Shown in pieces: positions 17,082 to 28,616 of a stretch of DNA of 64,000 nt. Source of the stretch: Kiritimatiellia bacterium (lineage in GTDB: Bacteria; Verrucomicrobiota; Kiritimatiellia; RFP12; JBMNHG01); contig JBMNHG010000008.1 of assembly GCA_050950285.1 (NCBI GenBank), positions 558,001-622,000 on the forward strand, in the 5' to 3' direction. Each line of letters begins with the position of its first letter. The first letter of the stretch is position 1. The notes under the pieces are model-generated. The model was given only the letters and a program-made list of their open reading frames with translations, ran no database searches and was not told where the DNA came from. A program made the position numbers and the translations under genes.

Positions 17082-17239
17082 CCGCTGATGACTGTGACGC
17101 CCAGCCTGCGGAACAGCCCCACCAGATCATAGGTGCCCAGAATGAGCCTGCCGGGGCACTTGCGCGAGCACAGCAGCCCGACCATGGGATGATCGGGAAT
17201 TTCGGCACCGCCATAGACCTGAATGTCGAACTGTTTCAT
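17003..17239 (-). pseudogene. chimeric ORF: 5' part of a second DprA-like gene fused to the MTase C-terminal 24 codons
   Basis: MVGLLCSRKCPGRLILGTYDLVGLFRRLGVTVISGF followed by PLVSDEVKIAAHNAFRNVEKGLVK, identical to the end of 18961..22377. Confidence 0.85.
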
Positions 17240-18315
17240 GCCTTTCCACCTTTGCGCTTGCGTTTAGAAGAAGGCTTCTTTCTCGTCGCCTCCAATGCCT
17301 TGGTTGCAGACTTCAAATCCTCGATGTACTGCTTTTCAGCGGCCTCTTCCGCGTGCAGACGACGACGCTCGGCGAAGGCATCGTATTGGGACTCGGCCCA
17401 TATTCGGGCTTCTTCCTGGCCGACTGTTCCCGGGCCTCCTAAGACTGGCAGTTCGGTGTCGCGAAGGAACTTGTCAAGAAACGCGGTCCAGTCGCGCATC
17501 TTGATGTCGGTTCGGCGCTGGGCGCGGAACTCGGCCTGATCGAGGAACATGACCACAATGCGGTTAAGTATATCGATTTCTTGCTCGCCCAAATAATTCT
17601 TTGCTGTCAGAACGTCGCGCTTCAGGACTCTCCCGCCAGTCCATGTGGTTAGTCCCATGTTGGCCTGCGTGGCATCTGCACGCCGCCGTACGATTTCCGC
17701 TGCCGTCATGCCGGTGGCGGCGAAGTGCATCTTATTTTGCATGGTGGCAAAGAAGACCTGCGTCTCCCGCTCGCCTTCCCGGTAATCGGTGGCCAAGGCG
17801 AATATCTCGCGGACACGCTGATACACCCGCTTCTCGCTGGCGCGGATTTCACGAATGCGGGCAAGCAGTTCGTCGAAGTAGTCAACCATTCGATCCCTGC
17901 CCTTCAACCGTTCGTCGTCGAGCGTGAATCCTTTTACGATGTACTCGCGCAGACGCTCCGTCGCCCACTGCCGAAAACGGGTTGCTACAGCAGACCTCAC
18001 CCGGTAGCCGACGGAAATGATCATATCAAGGTTGTAATAGTCGAGCTTTCGCCGGACTTGGCGGGTGCCTTCTTGACGAACTGACAAGAAATCCTTGTGA
18101 GTTGCCTCGGGGTGGAGTTCCCCTTCCGCGTAGATGTTCTGGATATGAAGGCTTATGTTCTGTTGAGTCGTCTGAAACAACTCCGCCATAAGCTGTTGCG
18201 TCAGCCAGACGGTCTCGTTCTCCAGCCGGACCTCAATCCGGCTCCGCCCATCCTCAGTCTGGTAGAGGATAATGCTGGAATTGGGCATGTGGTTGTTATT
18301 TGGATCAGTGCTCAT
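17236..18315 (-). CDS. rhuM: RhuM-family DNA-binding protein
   Basis: IILYQTEDG, ETVWLTQQLMAELF, YYNLDMIISVGYRV, FRQWATERLREYIVKGF, IREIRASEKR; ATGA overlaps at both ends. Confidence 0.9.
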   Translation of the reverse strand: MSTDPNNNHMPNSSIILYQTEDGRSRIEVRLENETVWLTQQLMAELFQTTQQNISLHIQNIYAEGELHPEATHKDFLSVRQEGTRQVRRKLDYYNLDMIISVGYRVRSAVATRFRQWATERLREYIVKGFTLDDERLKGRDRMVDYFDELLARIREIRASEKRVYQRVREIFALATDYREGERETQVFFATMQNKMHFAATGMTAAEIVRRRADATQANMGLTTWTGGRVLKRDVLTAKNYLGEQEIDILNRIVVMFLDQAEFRAQRRTDIKMRDWTAFLDKFLRDTELPVLGGPGTVGQEEARIWAESQYDAFAERRRLHAEEAAEKQYIEDLKSATKALEATRKKPSSKRKRKGGKA

Positions 18316-18893
18316 GGTCGCTTGCCTTGCGCGAGTCGCAGTCTGCCGGCGTCCGAGATTTCCCAGGTGCCGTGCGGTGAGTCGTCCTTGAGCAACCCCT
18401 CCTGGCGCATGGTGTTGCGTGCCCACTGGGCCGTATTGCGCCAGCGCGGCATGTCGGGGTTGCTGGAAAGCGGCTCGTAATCCACGTCCTTGAGGACAGG
18501 CTTCATGGCCTTGTGAACCTTGTTAAGGACGCTCTGCATCTTGGCGCTGCCACCAAGCTCATCAAGCGCCTTGAGAATCGGCAGATAAAAATCGGTCTCC
18601 GTTGTGCGCAGCCCCCTGCGCAGACGGCCCAGATTCTGTCGCTCTACTTTGGCCTCCTCATCCTGATCGTCATCCGCGCCACCGATGGCATCCCACTGCT
18701 TGCGCAAGTCGGCCACCTTGTCACGAAACTCAGTGACCATCTTCGCCCGGGCGATGGCAGCTTCCGCCTTGCCAAAGTCCCGGTTCTCAAAGGCACGGGC
18801 ACCGCTGCGCGTGCAAATATCAATCTCGGCCTCGAGTTCCTCCAGAAGGATTTCGAAGCCACTCAACACGTTGCCTGGGGTGCTCTCGTTCAT
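18312..18893 (-). CDS. Mrr N-terminal-like winged-helix protein, no nuclease domain
   Basis: N-terminal coiled coil, then FYLPILKAL..LGGSA...PRWRNTAQWARNTM..EGLL...HGTWEIS. Confidence 0.75.
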   Translation of the reverse strand: MNESTPGNVLSGFEILLEELEAEIDICTRSGARAFENRDFGKAEAAIARAKMVTEFRDKVADLRKQWDAIGGADDDQDEEAKVERQNLGRLRRGLRTTETDFYLPILKALDELGGSAKMQSVLNKVHKAMKPVLKDVDYEPLSSNPDMPRWRNTAQWARNTMRQEGLLKDDSPHGTWEISDAGRLRLAQGKRP

Positions 18894-18960: not shown

Positions 18961-21900
18961 TCACTTGACCAGCCCTTTCTCGACGTTGCGGAAGGCGTTG
19001 TGAGCCGCGATCTTCACCTCATCGGAAACCAGCGGGAAGGTGGTGAGAATGTGGGCGAACTCTTCCTCGTCCAGACCATAGAGGTTGGCGACAAGGCCGT
19101 CAAGCTCGGCGCGGAGCCTCGCGCGCTCGGCGGGAGCGGTCGCCCCGACGCTCGCGGCACTCGCCCGCCTGCCGAAGATTTCCTGCGCCAAATCATCGAA
19201 CTCCGGCGTGGTGCAGATCAGCCGCGCCGCCCGCTCCACAATCAGGCGGAATGCCGCATCCTTTTCCGTCAGGCGGGGAATGGGAAGTTGCTTCATATAA
19301 AAGAAGCTGCAATGATTCGTGATACGCTGCCGCATGAACCAGTCCGCAACAAATGAGTCGAACAACGCAACAACGGCGGCCATTGTTTTTGGTTCCGTCG
19401 GTTCAACCAACGTGGGCATCGTGTTTCCAGCAAAGAAATACGGCGGTATCACTGTGGCTATCAACGTCCGCTCGTTGGTGCTTGCGGCGACATCACGGAA
19501 CCCTATGCGGTAGTATTCGTAATCGTATCGCCCGTTTTCGCGGGGCTTCAAAGTTGCACGTCCTTCAGCCTCGCTAACCCACCATTGATTCTTTGCAAAC
19601 TGGTGGTCGAAGTGCCAGATCATTTTGCCCTCATACAGCGGAAGGCGTCCCTTGCCAGGTGCCGTCTTGAACAGGTAGCTGTCGTTGGTCATGTCAAACT
19701 CGCGCGTGAAAGAGATATTCCACGCGCCTTCAATCAGTTCGCCGAGCAGCGGGAACTTCGCCATCTTCTCGGCAATCCGGACATCCATCTGGTTCTTGAA
19801 CTCCATAATGGAGAGGGAGTCGGGGGCGAGACGGCGCATAAGCGGCACGGAAATCTCGATGACCCCCTCGTGCGAGAAGCGTTCGAGCTCGGCCACGTCA
19901 TGCCGCATGAAGGCGGCGGGGAAGCTCTCGGTCGAGCCGCCCTTCCTGAAGGACATGACAACGAACTTAAAACTGCGGTGCACCCCTTCAAAGACCTCCT
20001 TGCGGTTCTCAATGCAGAAAAGGCCGGTGACGGTAGTCTGCCCGAACAGCATCTCGCGCAGTTGCTTTGTGCCGAGATCGGTGTAGATGCCGCTGGGGAT
20101 GACGATGCCGCAGTAGCCGCCGGAGCGCAACAGGTTGAAGCACTGCTCGGTGAAGAGTTTGTAGAGGTTGATGTCCGATCCGGCCTTCCTGCCGTTAACG
20201 ATGCTGATCTGGTTTTCGTACTGCGCGGCGGAACGGTAGAAGGCGCTTACATGCGGGTACCCGCTGAGGTATTCCAGCCAGGCGGCACGGATATCGGGAT
20301 CCTTGAGGAGCTTGGCCTGCTCCTTCTCGAACTCCTTGATCGTCATCTTCTTCTTGGTGACCAGATCGGAAAAGTCCTCGAAGAACTCCTTGGAGTTGGG
20401 CTTGAAGATTTCCCATGGCGGATTGGTGATGATGGCGTCAAAGCCGCCCCGGGCAAGAATCTGGTCGAATTCATAGCCCCAGTGGAATGGCTTGAGAGCC
20501 TCGATATCCCCGATTTCCAGGGTGCGTCTCTTAGGCCTGCCTGCAGCGTTCTTCCTGTCGTTCCATGTGGCCTCCTCGTACCGGATGCCGAGCTGGTGAA
20601 ACTCGGAGAGTAGGATGCTGTTCAGCGTGGCGATCGCGAAGTCCTTGCGCCTCTGAATCTCATCCCGCATCTCAACGAGCTCGTCGGCCCTGCCGCCGCT
20701 GACGCGGCGATAGACGTCTATAAGCTCGTTCTTCTCTTCCAGCAGATCCCGGTAGCTCTTGCGGAAAAGATCCGGCGGATGGCGCCGGTCAAAGTCGTCG
20801 TCGTTGACGTGCATCAGGCCGATGAGCGAGTTGCCGGCCATGATGTTGAACTCGATGTTCGGCAGGGGCTCCAGATCCTCGGCCTTGCGCACGGATGCGA
20901 TGAGAGCGAGAAAGAGGCGCAGCTTGGCGATCTCGACGGCCTCCTCCATGATGTCCACGCCGAAGAGGTTGTTGGTGATGATGCTGCGCTTGATGTAGTA
21001 GGCGATGCTCTTGTGCTCCGCCTGCGTCCTCTTGAGCCATTCCTGCAGCTCGCGGTTGCCCAGGAACTCGATCTTGCCGATCACGGCGGCATAGACGTTG
21101 ATCAGCGTCTTCATGGCCGAGACCAGGAAGGCGGCGGAACCGCAGGCCGGGTCGAGAAGACGGAGATTGGGCAGCACATCGGACAGCAGCTTGCGGCAGA
21201 GCGGCGCATCAAGGGCCAGCAGGAGATCCCCGACCGAGTCGAAAGTGCGGGCGGCCTTGCCCTCGCCCTTGGCCACACCGTCCAGAATCAGGCGATGGAT
21301 GGTGCTTTCGCAGAGGTACTCGGTGATCTCGGGGCAAGTATAGTAGGCGCCGAACGCCTTCTGGTTGATGTACTTCTCAAAGATGTAGCCCAGGACGTCG
21401 GGGTTGATCTCATCGTCCTTGCCGCCGGGCGTATCGTCGAGATTCCATGAGTAATCCCCGAACAGCTTCAGGAGGTTTTCAAATGCCTCGTCGGGAATGG
21501 CTATCCTGCCGCGCCACCGCTGTTCGATGGGGTGCTCCAGAAAGAGGCCGCCGTTGAGGTAGCGAATCCTGCCCAGCAAGGCGTTGGTCGCTGCCGAGCG
21601 CTTGTCCTCCGGCTTGGCAAACCCCTCGAAGAAGAGCGCCTGCAGGAACTGGCTATAGAAGAGATCCGCCCCGCGCTTGCGGCTCTCGGCGTGCTTGTGC
21701 TGGAGATAGAGTTCGTCTCCGTCATCGAGAAAGAACTTCTTCTGAAGGAAATAGATGAACATGAGACGGTTGAGCAGAACCGAGGCATACCAGCGCCGGT
21801 CGCGTTCGTCATCAATGCCCTCGATCAGGTTGAGAAACGCGAGGTGCTGCTCCTGGAACTGGCCATAGAACCTCCTCGTGACCCGCTCGATGTCGAGAGC

Positions 21901-22377
21901 CTGCCTGAGCCGGTCGGTCACCTCCAGCAGCGGAACCTCGCCGCTGGCGTCGAAATCCTCAAAATCTACCGCAAGGGTCGCCAACTTGCTAAAGATGAGG
22001 TCGCCGGACTGTCCCCGTACATATACATGCGACCGTGGAACTGGTCTCCCGTCTTCGCGTTTCACCCAGTACCAGAGGCTCTGCGAGCGTTGTGCATCCA
22101 CGAAGATGAGAATGTTCTCGTGGTGCCTTTTCGTGATTTCCCTGTGAATCGCTGCGCGGCAAGCGGCATTCGGCACCGTGCCGTCATCAGTCTCGATTTC
22201 CAGCACCGCGACACCGGAAAGCTCGGCCACGGCGCGGCTGCGGGCGTCAATGCCCCTGGCCGTGACGGCGGATGGCGCGGCAAAGGATGGATTCGACCAG
22301 CCGAGTTCCTCGACGAAGAGGCGGCTAAAATCGAAGTCCTGAAGACACGTGCGCGCGTTTTCGAGATTCAGGTGCAT
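18961..22377 (-). CDS. Eco57I/type IIG-like N6-adenine DNA methyltransferase with C-terminal target-recognition region
   Basis: YLNGGLF, LGYIFE, GAYYT, LDPACGSAAFL (motif I), FGVDI, IITNPPW (motif IV), LPLYEGKMI, RDVAASTNERT. Confidence 0.9.
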   Translation of the reverse strand: MHLNLENARTCLQDFDFSRLFVEELGWSNPSFAAPSAVTARGIDARSRAVAELSGVAVLEIETDDGTVPNAACRAAIHREITKRHHENILIFVDAQRSQSLWYWVKREDGRPVPRSHVYVRGQSGDLIFSKLATLAVDFEDFDASGEVPLLEVTDRLRQALDIERVTRRFYGQFQEQHLAFLNLIEGIDDERDRRWYASVLLNRLMFIYFLQKKFFLDDGDELYLQHKHAESRKRGADLFYSQFLQALFFEGFAKPEDKRSAATNALLGRIRYLNGGLFLEHPIEQRWRGRIAIPDEAFENLLKLFGDYSWNLDDTPGGKDDEINPDVLGYIFEKYINQKAFGAYYTCPEITEYLCESTIHRLILDGVAKGEGKAARTFDSVGDLLLALDAPLCRKLLSDVLPNLRLLDPACGSAAFLVSAMKTLINVYAAVIGKIEFLGNRELQEWLKRTQAEHKSIAYYIKRSIITNNLFGVDIMEEAVEIAKLRLFLALIASVRKAEDLEPLPNIEFNIMAGNSLIGLMHVNDDDFDRRHPPDLFRKSYRDLLEEKNELIDVYRRVSGGRADELVEMRDEIQRRKDFAIATLNSILLSEFHQLGIRYEEATWNDRKNAAGRPKRRTLEIGDIEALKPFHWGYEFDQILARGGFDAIITNPPWEIFKPNSKEFFEDFSDLVTKKKMTIKEFEKEQAKLLKDPDIRAAWLEYLSGYPHVSAFYRSAAQYENQISIVNGRKAGSDINLYKLFTEQCFNLLRSGGYCGIVIPSGIYTDLGTKQLREMLFGQTTVTGLFCIENRKEVFEGVHRSFKFVVMSFRKGGSTESFPAAFMRHDVAELERFSHEGVIEISVPLMRRLAPDSLSIMEFKNQMDVRIAEKMAKFPLLGELIEGAWNISFTREFDMTNDSYLFKTAPGKGRLPLYEGKMIWHFDHQFAKNQWWVSEAEGRATLKPRENGRYDYEYYRIGFRDVAASTNERTLIATVIPPYFFAGNTMPTLVEPTEPKTMAAVVALFDSFVADWFMRQRITNHCSFFYMKQLPIPRLTEKDAAFRLIVERAARLICTTPEFDDLAQEIFGRRASAASVGATAPAERARLRAELDGLVANLYGLDEEEFAHILTTFPLVSDEVKIAAHNAFRNVEKGLVK

Positions 22378-22378
22378 G

Positions 22379-25300
22379 TCAGATGTCCTTATCCACGGCG
22401 ACCAATCCCATGGAACAGATGATCAGCGGCTCGCGGCTTTGTTCCTTTTCCTGGACGATGCAGAGCCGATCCTCCTCGTAGAGGCTGATCACGAGGTCGG
22501 CAAGCGCCTCGTTGGTGATGCCGGCGCGGAGCTGACGGTTCAGCGTGTCAACGGCGGACTGGCGCAGCGGGTGGCGGTAAATCTGCTCGATGGCGCGGTT
22601 CAGCAGCGGCGACTCGAAGAGCGTCCCCTTGTTATCGGCCGCATGCTGCTTAAGGCGCTCGTAGGTGCGGTAGCGCGCGCCCGACGGGCGACCGAGCTGG
22701 CCACCGATGGAGCGCTCCTCCCTCACAATCAGCCTGGCCCCCTCCTGCACCAGGTAGTGATGGTCGGCGAGGCGGGGAACGCTGGGTGTATCGGGCTCGC
22801 ATTCGGCCGCGCGCAGGATGGCATACTGCGACTCCGTGACGCTCTCCCCGGCCTTGTCCATCCATGCCAGGGCGTCGTTGCCGTCGGCAGTCTTGAGATA
22901 GACCAGCACGCCCTCGGGCTTGTCGGGGGTGGGACTCCAGGGGCGTGAGCTATAGATGATCGGCGGCAGGCCGGGGATGATCTTCTCCAGCGCGGGGTCG
23001 GCATCAATGGCATTCTTCCATATCTGGTAGGCGTAGGAGGAGAGGTCAACCTCGTTGTCGGTCTCGCCGTCGAGGATGCCGGCCTTCTCGGTGTAGAGAT
23101 CGTACAGCACCCTGACCTCGTCGCGCTGATCCTCGAAGAAGAGCTCGTCGGCCCCGACCACCTCCTGGTTCTCCTTGAGGCGCTGACGGACGCGGCCGCG
23201 GAGATTGATGAGCTTCTCGACCCCATCGGCCGGCAGGAAGGAGTAGCAGGTGATGGTGTCGGACTGCTGACCGATGCGGTCCACGCGGCCGGCGCGCTGG
23301 ATGAGCCGGATAATGGCCCAGGGAAGGTCGTAGTTGATGACGATATGGCAATCCTGGAGGTTCTGGCCCTCGCTCAGCACGTCGGTGGCCACGACCACGC
23401 GCAACTCATCGCGCGGCTTGATCTCGTCGCGCTTGCCATTGCTGACGGGGCTGAAGCGCCAGGCGATGAGGGTCGGGTCGCTGGAGTCGCCGGTCACCCC
23501 CGCGACACGGCTCACGCCCATCGCGGTGAGCTGGCGCTCCAGATAGCGGGCGGTGTCGGCGAACTGGGTGAAGATGATGACCTTCTCGTCGGGATGGTCT
23601 CGCGTGAGTGTGGCGGCCAGCGTCCGGAGCTTCTCATCCGCCGCCGGATCCCACTGTCCGGCGCTCTTCAAGATTTTCAGCAGGCGCCTGGCGTCGGCCT
23701 CGAGGTCGGTGCGCAGTTCGGGAATGAAGAGATCGGCACGCAGCCACTTGAAGCGCCGCTTGCCGGCCGTTTCATAGAACTCATAGACCTCCCGGGCCCT
23801 GGCGCGGAACTCCCCGGGAGTGCGCAGCGTCTGCCATTCGTCGCCGGGCGCTTCCTCGGGCGCATCCTCGTCGAAGTCGAGGCGTGCCCTGATGCCGTCG
23901 GCGTCCTCGTCGTTGACGCGGGAGTCGAGCATCTCCACCTCCTGCGGGCCGATGGGAATGGGCAGGCCGTTCTCGATGGCGTGAATATAGACGTAGTTGC
24001 GCAGGATATGGCGCCCGACGGACTGGAGAAACACCACACCGCTGCTCTCCAGGCGCTTGAAGAGACCGGTACGGCAGAAGCCCATGAGGCGCTTGCCGGC
24101 GCGCGAGAGATTCTCGATCTGCTTGGCCTCGGCCGGCGAGGGCTCCACGGCCGGGGAGGGCGTGATGTAATTTCCCAGCCCGTAGCGCGGCAGATCAAGC
24201 TTGTTGATGGTGGTGACGACATCCTTGCAGTAGAGGCGGCCGTACTGGTCGTTCCTGTCGTTCTCGTTCGCGCTGAACTTGAGGGTTCTGGGGACGCGTG
24301 TCGGGAAGTAGGAGCGGCGTCCATCCTCGAAGGTCAGGTACTTCTGCTTCCGCACGGGGTCGTACTCCGCATAGTTGTCCTGGATGAAGCTGCGTGTGCG
24401 CCGCACGAGGAAAAGGCGCATGAGCTCACGCCAGTCGTCCGGGTATTCGCTTTGCTCGAAGGCGGCGAGCGTGCGCACAGGACGCTGGTGCCGCTTGAGG
24501 AATTCGCTCTCCGAGATGTTCCGCAGCATCCGCTCCGGGCGGATGCCGAGGTCGCGGTCCTCGGGGACGAAGAGGCGGAGCTGGTTGGACAGATCGAGGT
24601 AGCTCTTGTTGTAGGGGGTGGCCGACAGCAGGATGACGCGACTCTCGTTCGCCTCGATATAGTTGCGGATGGCCTGGTAGCGCCTGCCCTCGCGGTTGCG
24701 GAGGTTGTGGCTCTCATCCACGATGACGAGGCGGTAGCGGCGGCATCCGGGCAACTCGCTGATGACCCGGGTGACGGAGAGCACCCTGGCGCGCAGGCGG
24801 TACTGATCCCGGTAGTCCTCCCACATGCGGACGAGGTTCTTCGGGCAGATGATGAGGGTCTCCAGCCCGTGGTCATCCTCGAAGATGCGCGCCACGGCGG
24901 TTGCCATGAGGGTCTTGCCCAGTCCGACCACATCGCCGATCATGACACCCTGGCGCTTGTTCAGATGGTGGGCGGCGATCTTGACCGCCGCGATCTGGAA
25001 ATCGAAGAGCTTGTTGCCGAAATCCTTGGGAATGCGGAACTCGGTGAGGCCGGTGCGGGCCTCCTGGGCCAGGCAATAGGCGATCTTCAGGTAGATATGG
25101 TACGGGGGAACAGGCGTCTCGCGCGCCCAGCTATTCTCGATGATCTCGACCAGTTCCCTGGAGATGTCGAGGCACCAGCGATCATTCCAGCGGTCCTCGA
25201 ACCACTGCGCCAGTTTCCCGGTGGCGTCATGGTCGAGGACGTCCACATTCAGCTCGCCCTGCTTGACGAGTCCGGCCAGGGTGAGGTTGCTGCTGCCGAG

Positions 25301-25774
25301 AAAGGCGGTGACGGGGTTGATGGGGTCGGGGCGGAAGAGCAGGTAGAGCTTGGCGTGCAAGGGGTACCTGACGAACAGTTTGACCACGACCTTCCCGGCC
25401 CTGATCTGCCTGGCCAGGCGTTGCAGCCCCTGTTCATCCGCATCGGTCGGCGCGCCGAAGCAGAGCTGGTCGCGGAACTCCTGTGCCAGCGTCTTCCTAA
25501 GCCGCAGGGCCGTGGCATTGTCCATGCGGGCTTCGTCGGGAGCGGCGAGGCTGAGGGCCTCCCGGAGGTCGTCGGCGGGGAGCGTCTGCATGCCGACCAG
25601 CAACCGGCAGCAGTGGCCCTCGCCACCGGGCCACCTCTCGACATAGTCATGGAGCTGCCGCCACCCGCGCAGGTTGAAATAGCCGACGCAGAAGTCCGCG
25701 CGGTTGCAGCGCTCCAGCGTCTCCCGCAAGGCCGGCAGCAGGGACTCGGTGATGTTGTCGAAGATACGTGGCAT
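22379..25774 (-). CDS. PLD-nuclease / SNF2-type helicase fusion
   Basis: VGYF, HAKLYL and GSSNLT (PLD); [32 protein letters not shown] (SF2 motifs); 1 nt from the MTase start. Confidence 0.9.
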
Positions 25775-26017
25775 TAGTCCGGCGTCCTGTTACTGGTGAG
25801 GATAATGTAGCAAGCTGCACTCCCGGATGCCAGAGGAAATCCGGCGCATTTGACGGGCTTCTGACGGGGTGTTTCCCATAATTTACCCCAAGAATCTGTG
25901 CAGCTCGCGGCGGGAGCGCCGCGTCTTCACCCACCTTGGGCAAGCAGACGCTTGCCCCTCCCGGAACAGTAATGGCCGTACCGAGGGTATGCATGGGCGG
26001 GGATGGCGGTACAAATG

Positions 26018-26177
26018 GGAGACAGGGGACAGGAGAGTAGCAGTAAGCAGTGGCAGTAGGCAGTAGGCAGTAGGAAAGGGGACAGGGGACAGGGGGCAGG
26101 AGACAGGAGACAGGAGCATGTAGAATGAACGAGCGAATCGACTCAATCGAATCTATCGATTCTATCGATTCTATCGA
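26018..26177. repeat. heptamer arrays (GGAGACA/GGGGACA, GGCAGTA) and 9-mer array (ATCGATTCT)
   Basis: Directly visible at 26018-26116 and 26137-26177. Confidence 0.85.
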
Positions 26178-27065
26178 AAAACACCTCTTGCGACCCGCCA
26201 GGAACGGCAGGCATTCCCGGTGTGCGGCTCGCTCAGAAAGTAAAACCCGCCAAATTCTGCCACAGCTTGCGGCAAAATTGCTCCGCCTGCCAATTCACGG
26301 TGGGTATTTTCAATCATCATGCCCGCGCTTTGGGCGCAGCCGCTTAGTCGAGGGGGTGTCGCTTCGGAGAAACAGCACATATTCGTTCTGCACGTCGAGG
26401 GCGAGGGTCTGGCCGGACTTGATGGCCGCAAGGTGGGCCGGGGTGAGGGTGGCGATCTCACCGCCCCAGCGGTGGCCGAAGGGCGTGTCGGCCCCATCAG
26501 TGGCATCAGGACGACATGGTGGAACCACGGAATATTCCAGAACGGATTGTTGTCGAATTGTGCAGCGTCGACTTGCCTAGTCTCTGCTTCTCCTAATTTT
26601 GCCACAGCTTGTGGCAAAAATTGATTTTGAGCTAATTCTGTCACCGGCTGTTGCAAAAATGCGCCCTTCGGTAATTTTGCAGCAGGCTGCTGCAAAATTG
26701 TATTTCGTTGATTATCAACAGGTTGCGTTGATAATGCGGCGTTAGACTCTAATTTTGCCGCAGCTTGCGGCAAAATTGCCGCCGGGTCGGGATAGTCCCG
26801 ATAAAAGGCGATCATCCGGCCAATATTTCGTTCGGAGAAGCCTTTCAATTCGGGCAGTTCGTTCTTGAGTTCGGCGGCGAGACGGGGGATGACGCCTGCG
26901 CCCCAGCCTTCGAGTTTCTGGCGGGCGTCAATCATGCGCCCGATGTCCCAGTAGAGCCGGATCAGTTCCGCATTGGCAGCCAGCACGGCGCGGGTCTGCG
27001 CGGTTTGTATGCGCAGTTTCACGTCGGCCAGCAATGCGGCAAAGCCCTTGCGGTCTGGCTGTTCC

Positions 27066-27076
<11 letters not shown>
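26171..27076 (-). pseudogene. yhcG: YhcG/DUF1016 N-terminal domain, truncated at ~26505 (no PD-(D/E)XK C-terminal domain)
   Basis: AANAELIRLYWDIG, GWGAGVIPRLA.EL, KGFSERN...M, IPWFHHVVLM, then unrelated sequence to a stop inside a tandem repeat. Confidence 0.8.
26556..26777. repeat. in-frame array of ~27-bp palindromes with ~39-bp period inside yhcG
   Basis: Units at 26556, 26595, 26634, 26673, 26709, 26751; an extra copy at 26253-26279. Confidence 0.85.

Positions 27077-28616
<1,540 letters not shown>

Follow-up and report, generated by a model that had tools for sequence, protein, structure and literature searches.

A palindromic array within the coding sequence of yhcG

The genome of a Kiritimatiellia bacterium carries a tandem array of short palindromes inside a protein-coding sequence of the YhcG/DUF1016 family (yhcG), which raises the question of whether DNA, RNA or protein is the object of the constraint and of what keeps the two arms of each palindrome alike. 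The locus lies in a 64,000-nt stretch of contig JBMNHG010000008.1 (assembly GCA_050950285.1, positions 558,001 to 622,000), referred to here as the window and used for all coordinates. Across the yhcG family, the base pairing between the arms is conserved without conservation of the peptide or of a fixed recognition sequence, and the encoded residues follow from the bases.

In the window, the array at 26595-26777 comprises three 27-nt palindromes that are near-perfect and set at multiples of 39 nt, together with off-register and decayed units, and one more unit is detached from it. The units were located by repeat search, by a covariance model of the palindromic unit (R1) or by hand:

26751..26777: unit 1, perfect 12+3+12 palindrome (arms 26751-26762/26766-26777), peptide ILPQAAAKL; repeat search, R1 42.8 bits
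26711..26735: off-register 9+7+9 palindrome (arms 26711-26719/26727-26735), peptide LSTQPVDNQ; repeat search
26673..26699: unit 3, perfect 13+1+13 palindrome (arms 26673-26685/26687-26699), peptide ILQQPAAKL; repeat search, R1 43.2 bits
26634..26660: unit 4, decayed, peptide FLQQPVTEL; R1 13 bits
26595..26621: unit 5, 11/12 pairs (perfect 10+3+10 at 26597-26606/26610-26619), peptide FLPQAVAKL; R1 38.6 bits
26556..26582: half-unit with one recognisable arm, peptide QVDAAQF; 5/12 pairs counted by hand, no R1 match
26253..26279: detached solitary unit, 10/12 pairs; R1 31.5 bits, E 8e-7

An initial annotation, made from the sequence alone, had proposed an AT-rich array of about 39-bp period with a detached copy at 26253. 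Searches for inverted and direct repeats and R1 confirm this arrangement, and the direct repeats include three copies of 29 nt at 39-nt spacing (26593, 26632, and 26671). The GC content is 0.44-0.45 over 26550-26749 compared to 0.66 for the genome, and the peptides quoted in the annotation match a 301-aa open reading frame (ORF) on the minus strand (27076..26171). The palindrome at 26711..26735 has its centre one base off the family phase (phase 2) and is present in locus L004, from a Lentisphaerae metagenome-assembled genome, too.

Chance is excluded as the origin of these palindromes. A strict palindrome pattern occurs at only three sites in the 4.05-Mb genome, all of them in the window array, and at none in a reversed control. 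Sites with at least 11/12 pairs and a 3-nt loop number 45 in the genome; six of these have a GC content below 0.5, and three of the six are the window units.

The detached unit does not belong to the yhcG reading frame proper and lies ~20 nt from a point of rearrangement. Only the 27-nt unit itself matches L004, which has hsdS at that place, and homology to the helicase-side DNA of another genome (G223) ends nearby, at 26232. As to its origin, tblastx against all collected loci returned nothing, and blastn returned only the unit itself and the G223 helicase-side DNA.

Conservation of base pairing across the yhcG family

Relatives of yhcG number 3666 proteins at E up to 0.001, and the linkers of homologues contain a motif of nine residues, such as ILPQAAAKL or KVPQPAAQL, in 1 to ~8 copies. 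Eighty yhcG loci were collected from many phyla, 59 of which have an intact stretch from the N-domain to the PW.H motif by a simple motif rule. Every possible centre in these genes was scored for Watson-Crick pairing at offsets 2-13 (12 positions). In codon phase 0, 91 of the 2923 linker centres have at least 9/12 pairs and 46 have at least 11, and the other two phases contribute 1 and 5 high-scoring centres (91 of 97 in phase 0). Outside the linkers, none of the ~60,500 centres in the rest of the same genes reaches 11/12 pairs. Resampling of synonymous codons, with the peptide kept and the codon usage of each gene's own (200 times), yields 1.7 ± 1.4 centres with at least 9 pairs (maximum 8) and 0.04 with at least 11, and 47 of the 59 genes exceed all 200 of their own resamplings. 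The initial annotation had named, as the result that would speak against it, homologous linkers that are no more palindromic than codon-shuffled sequence and that do not vary in unit number; the comparison of 91 to 1.7 centres went the other way. The geometry of the palindrome pairs first codon positions with first and second with third, so that the partner base dictates about eight synonymous sites in each unit.

Covariation was examined in 99 distinct units, chosen at ≥8/12 pairs and placed in a gap-free 33-column alignment. Compensatory changes are found on both sides in all 12 stem pairs, which bears out the description in the annotation of a symmetry kept at the nucleotide level while the peptide changes, with changes in one arm mirrored in the other. 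Cells with a double change number 160, against 60.2 ± 5.2 in shuffles (reached in none of 500), figures that are not to be read as probabilities. Pairing falls from 83% to 28-41% when the partner is slid by 1-3 columns. The stem core (offsets 3-9) is 89-98% paired, and offsets 1-2 are paired in only ~55-61%, a profile that is as predicted for a small-loop hairpin. The bases T-G-C / G-C-A at d=6-8 are nearly invariant among units, and the interchangeable stems include GCCGCA/TGCGGC, GCAACA/TGTTGC, GGGCAACC/GGTTGCCC, and GGTCAACA/TGTTGACC.

The residues covary as well. At motif positions x2 and x8, the combinations L-K (44) and V-Q (39) prevail over L-Q (3) and V-K (9) among 145 distinct motifs from 120 proteins. 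A structure model of the full-length homologue P0002 is poor overall (mean predicted local distance difference test score, pLDDT, of 55.2) and was used only to contrast the linker with its flanks: the N-domain has a pLDDT of 67-83 and the helices after PW.H have 80-88, whereas residues 100-175 have 35-42 and are modelled without secondary structure. The linker peptide looks like a passenger.

Distribution in YhcG, RhuM and ORF6N

On sequence comparison, the palindromic feature is family-wide and not local to the window, which the initial annotation had missed, though it is not universal. R1 matches 75 of the 80 yhcG loci (our own reading of the matches), nearly always in the yhcG linker. In most family members, one palindrome is located just upstream of the conserved (I/L)(P/S)W.H motif. 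In the subfamily of the window, this palindrome is tandemly amplified in 39-nt (13-codon) steps, which makes the linker between the N-terminal and nuclease domains variable in length.

An independent sample of Pseudomonadota (30 DUF1016_N genes from 151 genomes) has a palindrome of at least 10 bp at the same spot in 22 of the 30 genes, and none of that length was found in the other eight; the total is 25 palindromes, compared to 0.92 ± 0.92 in resampled sequences. These palindromes occur in both the IPWGHN and the LSWSHY branches with unrelated inner stems, and some stems, as in L157, extend outward into the conserved IPW codons. The gene for gp17 of Wolbachia phage WO (L186) has no palindrome of 8 bp or longer. 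Three palindromes are present in yhcG of Escherichia coli K-12 (gene positions 303-329, 338-372, and 375-413), with their centres 39 nt apart. R1 finds no match in the K-12 gene because that branch has a different stem sequence, and the three were found by a general palindrome scan.

Coding palindromes also occur in two other families. In RhuM, a palindrome of 9-13 bp occupies one fixed site in 20 of 25 ORFs; its outer AACT...AGTT is constant, its inner stem is freely variable, and the peptides include TIRKFRIV, TVKKFLTV, TIGKFPIV, and TVAKSATV. In ORF6N, 28 of 30 domains have a 10-17-bp palindrome at one fixed site, encoding peptides of the LRSQFVTSS type. PADLOC places YhcG in class PDC-S02 and both RhuM and ORF6N in class PDC-S05, which are phage-defence candidates.

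The yhcG loci have hsdM upstream in 20 of 63 cases and hsdS downstream in 18 of 59, and others are located between housekeeping genes or in a bacteriophage exclusion (BREX)-like locus. One locus (L037, 3866-6234) has two different tandem yhcG paralogs between hsdM and hsdS, each with a palindrome at the equivalent place, and in another (L056) yhcG is inserted between GcpE/ispG and proS. In Zoogloea and Propionivibrio (L070, 382-8710, and L071), our own reading of the ORFs places yhcG together with a zinc-ribbon ORF, with a gene for a PglX-like methyltransferase on one side and a PglZ-like gene on the other. Both of these loci contain a non-coding copy of the palindrome, with a bulge and an extra mismatch, between the zinc-ribbon ORF and the pglZ-like gene, just upstream of the latter. 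This non-coding unit looks like all that remains of a lost yhcG, with similarity that in L070 seems to reach up to the IPW codons.

Gain, loss and breakage of units

The suggestion that the array is expandable is borne out by linker length. The distance from the YW.IG motif to the PW.H motif, taken in 117 homologues, recurs at 76, 89 (40 proteins), 102 (31), 115 (13), 128, 141 or 154 residues, and linker length lies on a 13-residue lattice in 95 of the 117. Of 60 gaps between successive units, 32 measure 39 nt and 7 measure 78 nt. The array of L004 is 78 nt longer than that of the window, and a contig from metagenome run X17 has a full-length gene that lacks exactly the 39 nt from 26633 to 26671 (joint 26632->26672). 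This run is labelled as RNA-Seq but is probably DNA; three runs recorded as RNA contain only 0.07-0.08 of the sampled words. The homologues P0002 and P0007 are 95% identical and differ in length by 39 residues, and the yhcG allele of E. coli O157:H7 lacks 78 nt.

Several alleles are broken or rearranged in or beside a palindrome. The truncated yhcG of the E. coli B derivative NEBExpress (L086) ends at gene position 406, inside palindrome 3, and is followed by a small transposase ORF, and in E. coli LR-48 (L087), IS1 abuts the truncated gene at position 385, inside the same palindrome. In one class of E. coli alleles, ~40 N-terminal residues are identical to K-12, the linker is only ~72% identical, and similarity resumes after the linker. 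The array may be a recombination substrate or diversification device, as the annotation proposed: units come and go, breakpoints fall within or next to palindromes, and the E. coli linker is hypervariable, although the same is expected passively of any short inverted repeat. Between the E. coli alleles L088 and L089 there are 34 differences in 1113 sites (3%), five of which fall in one palindrome and include a compensated pair at 344/360. This clustered change fits quasi-palindrome correction, and gene conversion from another unit would look identical.

Two further lines on breakage were set aside. Contigs from three other metagenome runs (X1-X3) break at the palindromes, which was rejected as biology because it is an effect of de Bruijn assembly. 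An apparent enrichment of breakpoints, in which DUF1016_N matches stopped short at about model positions 85-110, was dropped because hidden Markov model (HMM) alignments also stop at variable linkers.

Maintenance of the palindromes

Our leading explanation, to which we give about an even chance, is that the units are a DNA-level hairpin module of the yhcG family, tandemly amplified, in which template switching is the main force keeping the arms alike, perhaps aided by selection. The pairing would act at the level of DNA and equally on both strands, and intrastrand template switching during replication (quasi-palindrome correction) would be what mainly restores one arm to match the other. Selection for some reader of the structure may reinforce this process. 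As side effects, units would be gained and lost, and deletions, truncations, and mosaic alleles would arise preferentially in the array. Template switching fits the strict Watson-Crick pairing, the strand symmetry, the extension of some stems (L157) into the IPW codons, and the clustered change between L088 and L089. For the non-coding DNA of Proteobacteria, quasi-palindrome template switching (the Ripley model) has been put forward as a process that conserves perfect inverted repeats (PMC5941160). Taken by itself, the claim that template switching is the main maintaining force stands at about even odds.

Several points weigh against this explanation. The covariation shuffle figures overstate significance because the units were preselected at ≥8/12 pairs and the sequences are related. 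The breakpoint cases are few and anecdotal, and the two E. coli events may not be independent, as they possibly go back to a common ancestor. Mutational homogenisation and selection are not separated by direct evidence. Template switching alone would make coding palindromes common, yet the rest of the same genes has none, and inverted repeats are under-represented in E. coli ORFs according to a report cited in a passage of PMC6060812. The strongest objection to a neutral account is that YhcG, RhuM and ORF6N share a genomic niche and each carry a coding palindrome, which points to a function. The relic copies are imperfect (10/12 pairs at 26253; a bulge and an extra mismatch in L070/L071), which hints that upkeep depends on use of the gene.

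In the rival that survives best, selection maintains the hairpin or cruciform as a cis-element for a structure-specific reader, perhaps the Holliday-junction-resolvase-like nuclease domain of YhcG itself, and the element serves in autoregulation or in recombination and allele exchange within defence cassettes. We consider this unlikely. A coding palindrome at a fixed site in three PADLOC defence-candidate families (20 of 25 in RhuM, 28 of 30 in ORF6N, and 22 of 30 in DUF1016_N) is consistent with it, as are the decay of the relic copies and the strict Watson-Crick pairing with 1-3-nt loops, which suit cruciform extrusion. On the other side, the arms, at 7-13 bp, are on the short side for extruding a cruciform in vivo. 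No reader was identified, RhuM and ORF6N have no nuclease domain, and the palindrome is missing from WO gp17 (at ≥8 bp) and from 8 of the 30 Pseudomonadota genes (at ≥10 bp). The nuclease domain of YhcG is placed, in a passage of PMC1189080, in a group with archaeal Holliday-junction resolvases and YraN. In a broader form, the coding hairpin would be a cis-element common to the single-gene defence cassettes of restriction-modification and BREX loci (YhcG, RhuM, and ORF6N), namely a DNA site with structural specificity whose inner stem varies. It would be read by a host factor or by a cassette protein (in YhcG, its own nuclease) and would control expression or drive recombinational exchange and diversification of linker length. 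This broader form is a tentative suggestion, which we would put at somewhat above a one-in-five chance.

The next rival is that the stems fold in the transcript, where they may slow ribosomes between domains or stabilise or process the operon mRNA. The 261-nt linker folds more stably than expected as RNA (z = -4.67), its centroid shows individual hairpins, the mean minimum free energy of a unit is -13.0 kcal/mol as RNA, and the array is located between the two domains of YhcG. However, the z-score is stronger when the linker is folded as DNA (-6.61). G:U pairs make up only 14 of 1188 stem cells (1.2%), and mismatches of the A:C type are at least as frequent as those of the G:T type (41 vs 17, 7 vs 3, and 9 vs 4), with G:T never in excess in any tallied set, unlike in known RNA structures. 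Where Val occupies x6, 59 units have A as the third base of the partner and 4 have G (pair types at d=4), though G would still pair in RNA. An Rfam scan of 25800-27300 (E up to 1) found no match above the gathering threshold and only two matches to microRNA models (24 and 19 bits, against gathering thresholds of 140 and 94). In E. coli, Term-seq data in supplement file 2 of PMC7815308 place 3' ends in yhcG only at gene position 80 and, antisense, at 755 (K-12 coordinates 3367906 and 3368581), with none at the palindromes; the end 80 nt into the gene is listed there as Rho-dependent, and the antisense end lies inside the gene. The absence of 3' ends at the palindromes is weak evidence because yhcG is weakly expressed. 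The constraint is probably not a typical mRNA structure, and we regard this rival as rather improbable.

It is very unlikely that a small selfish element, similar to a Rickettsia palindromic element or to a palindromic amphipathic repeat coding element (PARCEL), invaded the linker and multiplies there and nearby. Solitary copies do exist outside the array (26253-26279 in the window and the non-coding copy in L070/L071), and the tandem arrangement, variable copy number, and dyad symmetry resemble those of PARCELs as described in part of PMC2996958. On the other hand, the 4.05-Mb genome has no further copies, and the position and codon phase are fixed family-wide (91 of 97 in phase 0). Given this fixed position and phase, and the L070 copy as a relic of yhcG, descent and local duplication explain the data better than transposition.

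The initial annotation had also offered an operator-like collection of binding sites. As an operator array, the palindromes would bind a dimeric protein such as the YhcG N-domain or a restriction-modification controller. The perfect dyad symmetry, the near-invariant T-G-C / G-C-A at d=6-8, and the setting in a restriction-modification operon would suit such an array. The conserved T-G-C / G-C-A is also demanded by the peptide, though, and the inner stems are wholly different between subfamilies. Within genes, 33 of 46 pairs of units have at least one fully compensated base-pair difference in the core, in 15 of the 26 genes with multiple units; units of one gene thus differ while each remains symmetric, which argues against an operator for a dimer that reads the sequence. 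This part of the annotation is not supported, and we give an operator array hardly any credence. Selection on a P/Q/A-rich linker motif alone, with the palindromes as a by-product, can be dismissed almost entirely: the 9-residue motif does recur across homologues, but synonymous resampling refutes this account (1.7 vs 91 centres), third positions are set by the second positions of their partners, and residues covary as pairing requires.

Relation to published elements and significance

A full-text literature search, with subscription journals and bioRxiv supplements outside its reach, found no published description of palindromes in yhcG. Among kinds already described, those that come nearest are PARCELs, Rickettsia palindromic elements, the coding palindromes of Nematomorpha mitochondria, and the conservation of inverted repeats by template switching. 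Those described for template switching (in part of PMC5941160) are, similar to the yhcG units, perfect short repeats conserved beyond expectation, with mutual correction of the arms and clustered changes. However, they are non-coding or mutational hotspots, whereas the yhcG palindrome is in frame at a fixed site in one family across phyla, occurs in tandem, and dictates amino acids. PARCELs share with the yhcG array the tandem intragenic repeats of variable number and dyad-symmetric coding DNA, and are spread by horizontal transfer; according to portions of PMC2996958, their units comprise 25 residues (75 nt) of imperfect symmetry and varying phase, and are found in membrane or surface proteins (DUF285/TIGR02167). 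In contrast, the yhcG units have 13 codons, a fixed phase, and near-perfect compensated stems in the linker of a nuclease, in an ORF that matches PF17761 only.

Rickettsia palindromic elements and other protein-coding palindromic inserts (Ogata et al. 2000 and 2002, Claverie and Ogata 2003, as cited in PMC4316617 and PMC2996958) likewise place in-frame palindromic DNA in unstructured protein segments, but the Rickettsia elements are 100-150 nt long and dispersed in many unrelated genes of one genome, while the yhcG units are 27 nt long and are found in one gene family and nowhere else in the genome. Dispersal of the kind known for repetitive extragenic palindromic elements, miniature inverted-repeat transposable elements, and the Rickettsia elements was not seen, as only the window sites were found in 4.05 Mb. 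The Nematomorpha palindromes are also stringent inverted repeats in functional coding sequence that represent a compromise between protein and nucleic acid; their arms reach up to 284 bp in conserved protein regions, unlike the short stems and passenger peptide in the linker of a bacterial defence candidate. The array also differs from an array of clustered regularly interspaced short palindromic repeats (CRISPR), in which spacers are ~26-72 nt and non-coding, in its 12-nt spacers that are in frame inside a protein-conserved ORF.

Integron attC sites are hairpins of conserved structure and variable sequence, 57-141 nt long, with R and L boxes and extrahelical bases, and the 27-nt near-perfect palindromes of yhcG differ from them in having no bulges. 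In a type I restriction-modification locus, the number of 12-bp TAEL repeats in hsdS of EcoR124I and EcoR124II sets the length of a protein spacer, which resembles the yhcG array in its in-frame copy number; the TAEL repeats are, however, not palindromic, and their function is established. The yhcG units extend coding palindromic repeats as a published kind.

It is rare in bacteria for nucleic-acid structure to override the choice of amino acids, and here a coding palindrome keeps one fixed position in a protein family whose members range from Lentisphaerota to E. coli K-12. Should mutation alone account for the upkeep, the yhcG linker would be among the clearest examples in nature of coding sequence shaped by template switching over deep time, and would call for caution when selection on such linkers is inferred from alignments. 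If some factor reads the structure, the structure would be an unrecognised control or recombination element common to several of the most widespread candidate anti-phage genes inside restriction-modification operons. The question is directly testable because yhcG of E. coli K-12 carries three such palindromes.

The host gene and its neighborhood in the window

The window yhcG belongs to a defence island, the genes and remnants of which are as follows:

27066..28616, minus strand: hsdM, type I methyltransferase, directly upstream in the same operon; PF02384 E 3.8e-112, PF12161
26171..27076, minus strand: yhcG/DUF1016 pseudogene (N-terminal domain, palindromic linker, out-of-frame remnant); 301-aa ORF, PF17761 match
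26503..26508: deletion junction; pieces of the blastn alignment to L004 overlap on these 6 nt
26310..26528, minus strand: remnant of the C-terminal extension of the yhcG subfamily, now in another frame; 72-aa ORF matching the C-termini of P0002, P0007, and P0008
22382-25774, minus strand: SNF2/PLD (HKD) helicase; best PADLOC match C3a139 'HKD+Snf2', also DrmD- and BrxH-like models
18964-22377, minus strand: Eco57I/MmeI-like methyltransferase; Pfam and PADLOC scans
17239-18426, minus strand: RhuM gene, downstream of the Eco57I/MmeI-like methyltransferase; PF13310 E 3.5e-105
~18079-18103: RhuM-family coding palindrome in this RhuM gene; AACT...AGTT type, 10/12 pairs

The yhcG ORF starts 11 nt inside the stop of hsdM. 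Its assignment to yhcG in the initial annotation stands, with a DUF1016_N domain (PF17761) at residues 19-110 (E 2.8e-23) as the only Pfam match of the 301-aa ORF; what the annotation overlooked is that the gene is not intact. A Pfam scan finds no YhcG_C PD-(D/E)XK nuclease domain (PF06250) in this ORF because 778 nt that are present in L004 are deleted. L004 is 94-98% identical to the window on both sides of the deletion, and the missing 778 nt encode the nuclease domain there; the gap follows the codons for IPWFHHVVLM and shifts the frame. Contigs of runs X1-X3, which come from three studies, cross the deletion junction with zero differences, and therefore the deletion is real and not an assembly error. 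By comparison with L004, the window yhcG is a deletion pseudogene of the YhcG/DUF1016 family, in which the gene is already dead and the array persists as a still-intact fossil of the module.

The profile HMMs of PADLOC class PDC-S02 match the window ORF with 22 models (best E 9.2e-36) and the full-length homologue P0002 with E 7.2e-141, which makes yhcG a phage-defence candidate by profile match. A C-terminal extension of ~70 aa (DATDG..TPFG.RWGG...LALDVQNEYVLFLR) is conserved in the yhcG subfamily (P0002, P0007, P0008, P0011, and P0013), and its remnant at 26310-26528 has no Pfam match. The SNF2/PLD helicase, the Eco57I/MmeI-like methyltransferase, and the RhuM gene are located downstream of yhcG. 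The methyltransferase and helicase (18964-25774) may be a separate defence system beside a decayed type I locus, which has no hsdS here.

Between the helicase and the detached unit, low-complexity tandem repeats at 26014-26184 (units like GCAGTAGG, GGACAGG, and TCTATCGAT) represent a dispersed repeat, with 25 matches in genome G223, which belongs to the same taxonomic order, and several in the genome of the window itself. In the metagenome runs, this repeat is associated with contig breaks and rearranged joints.

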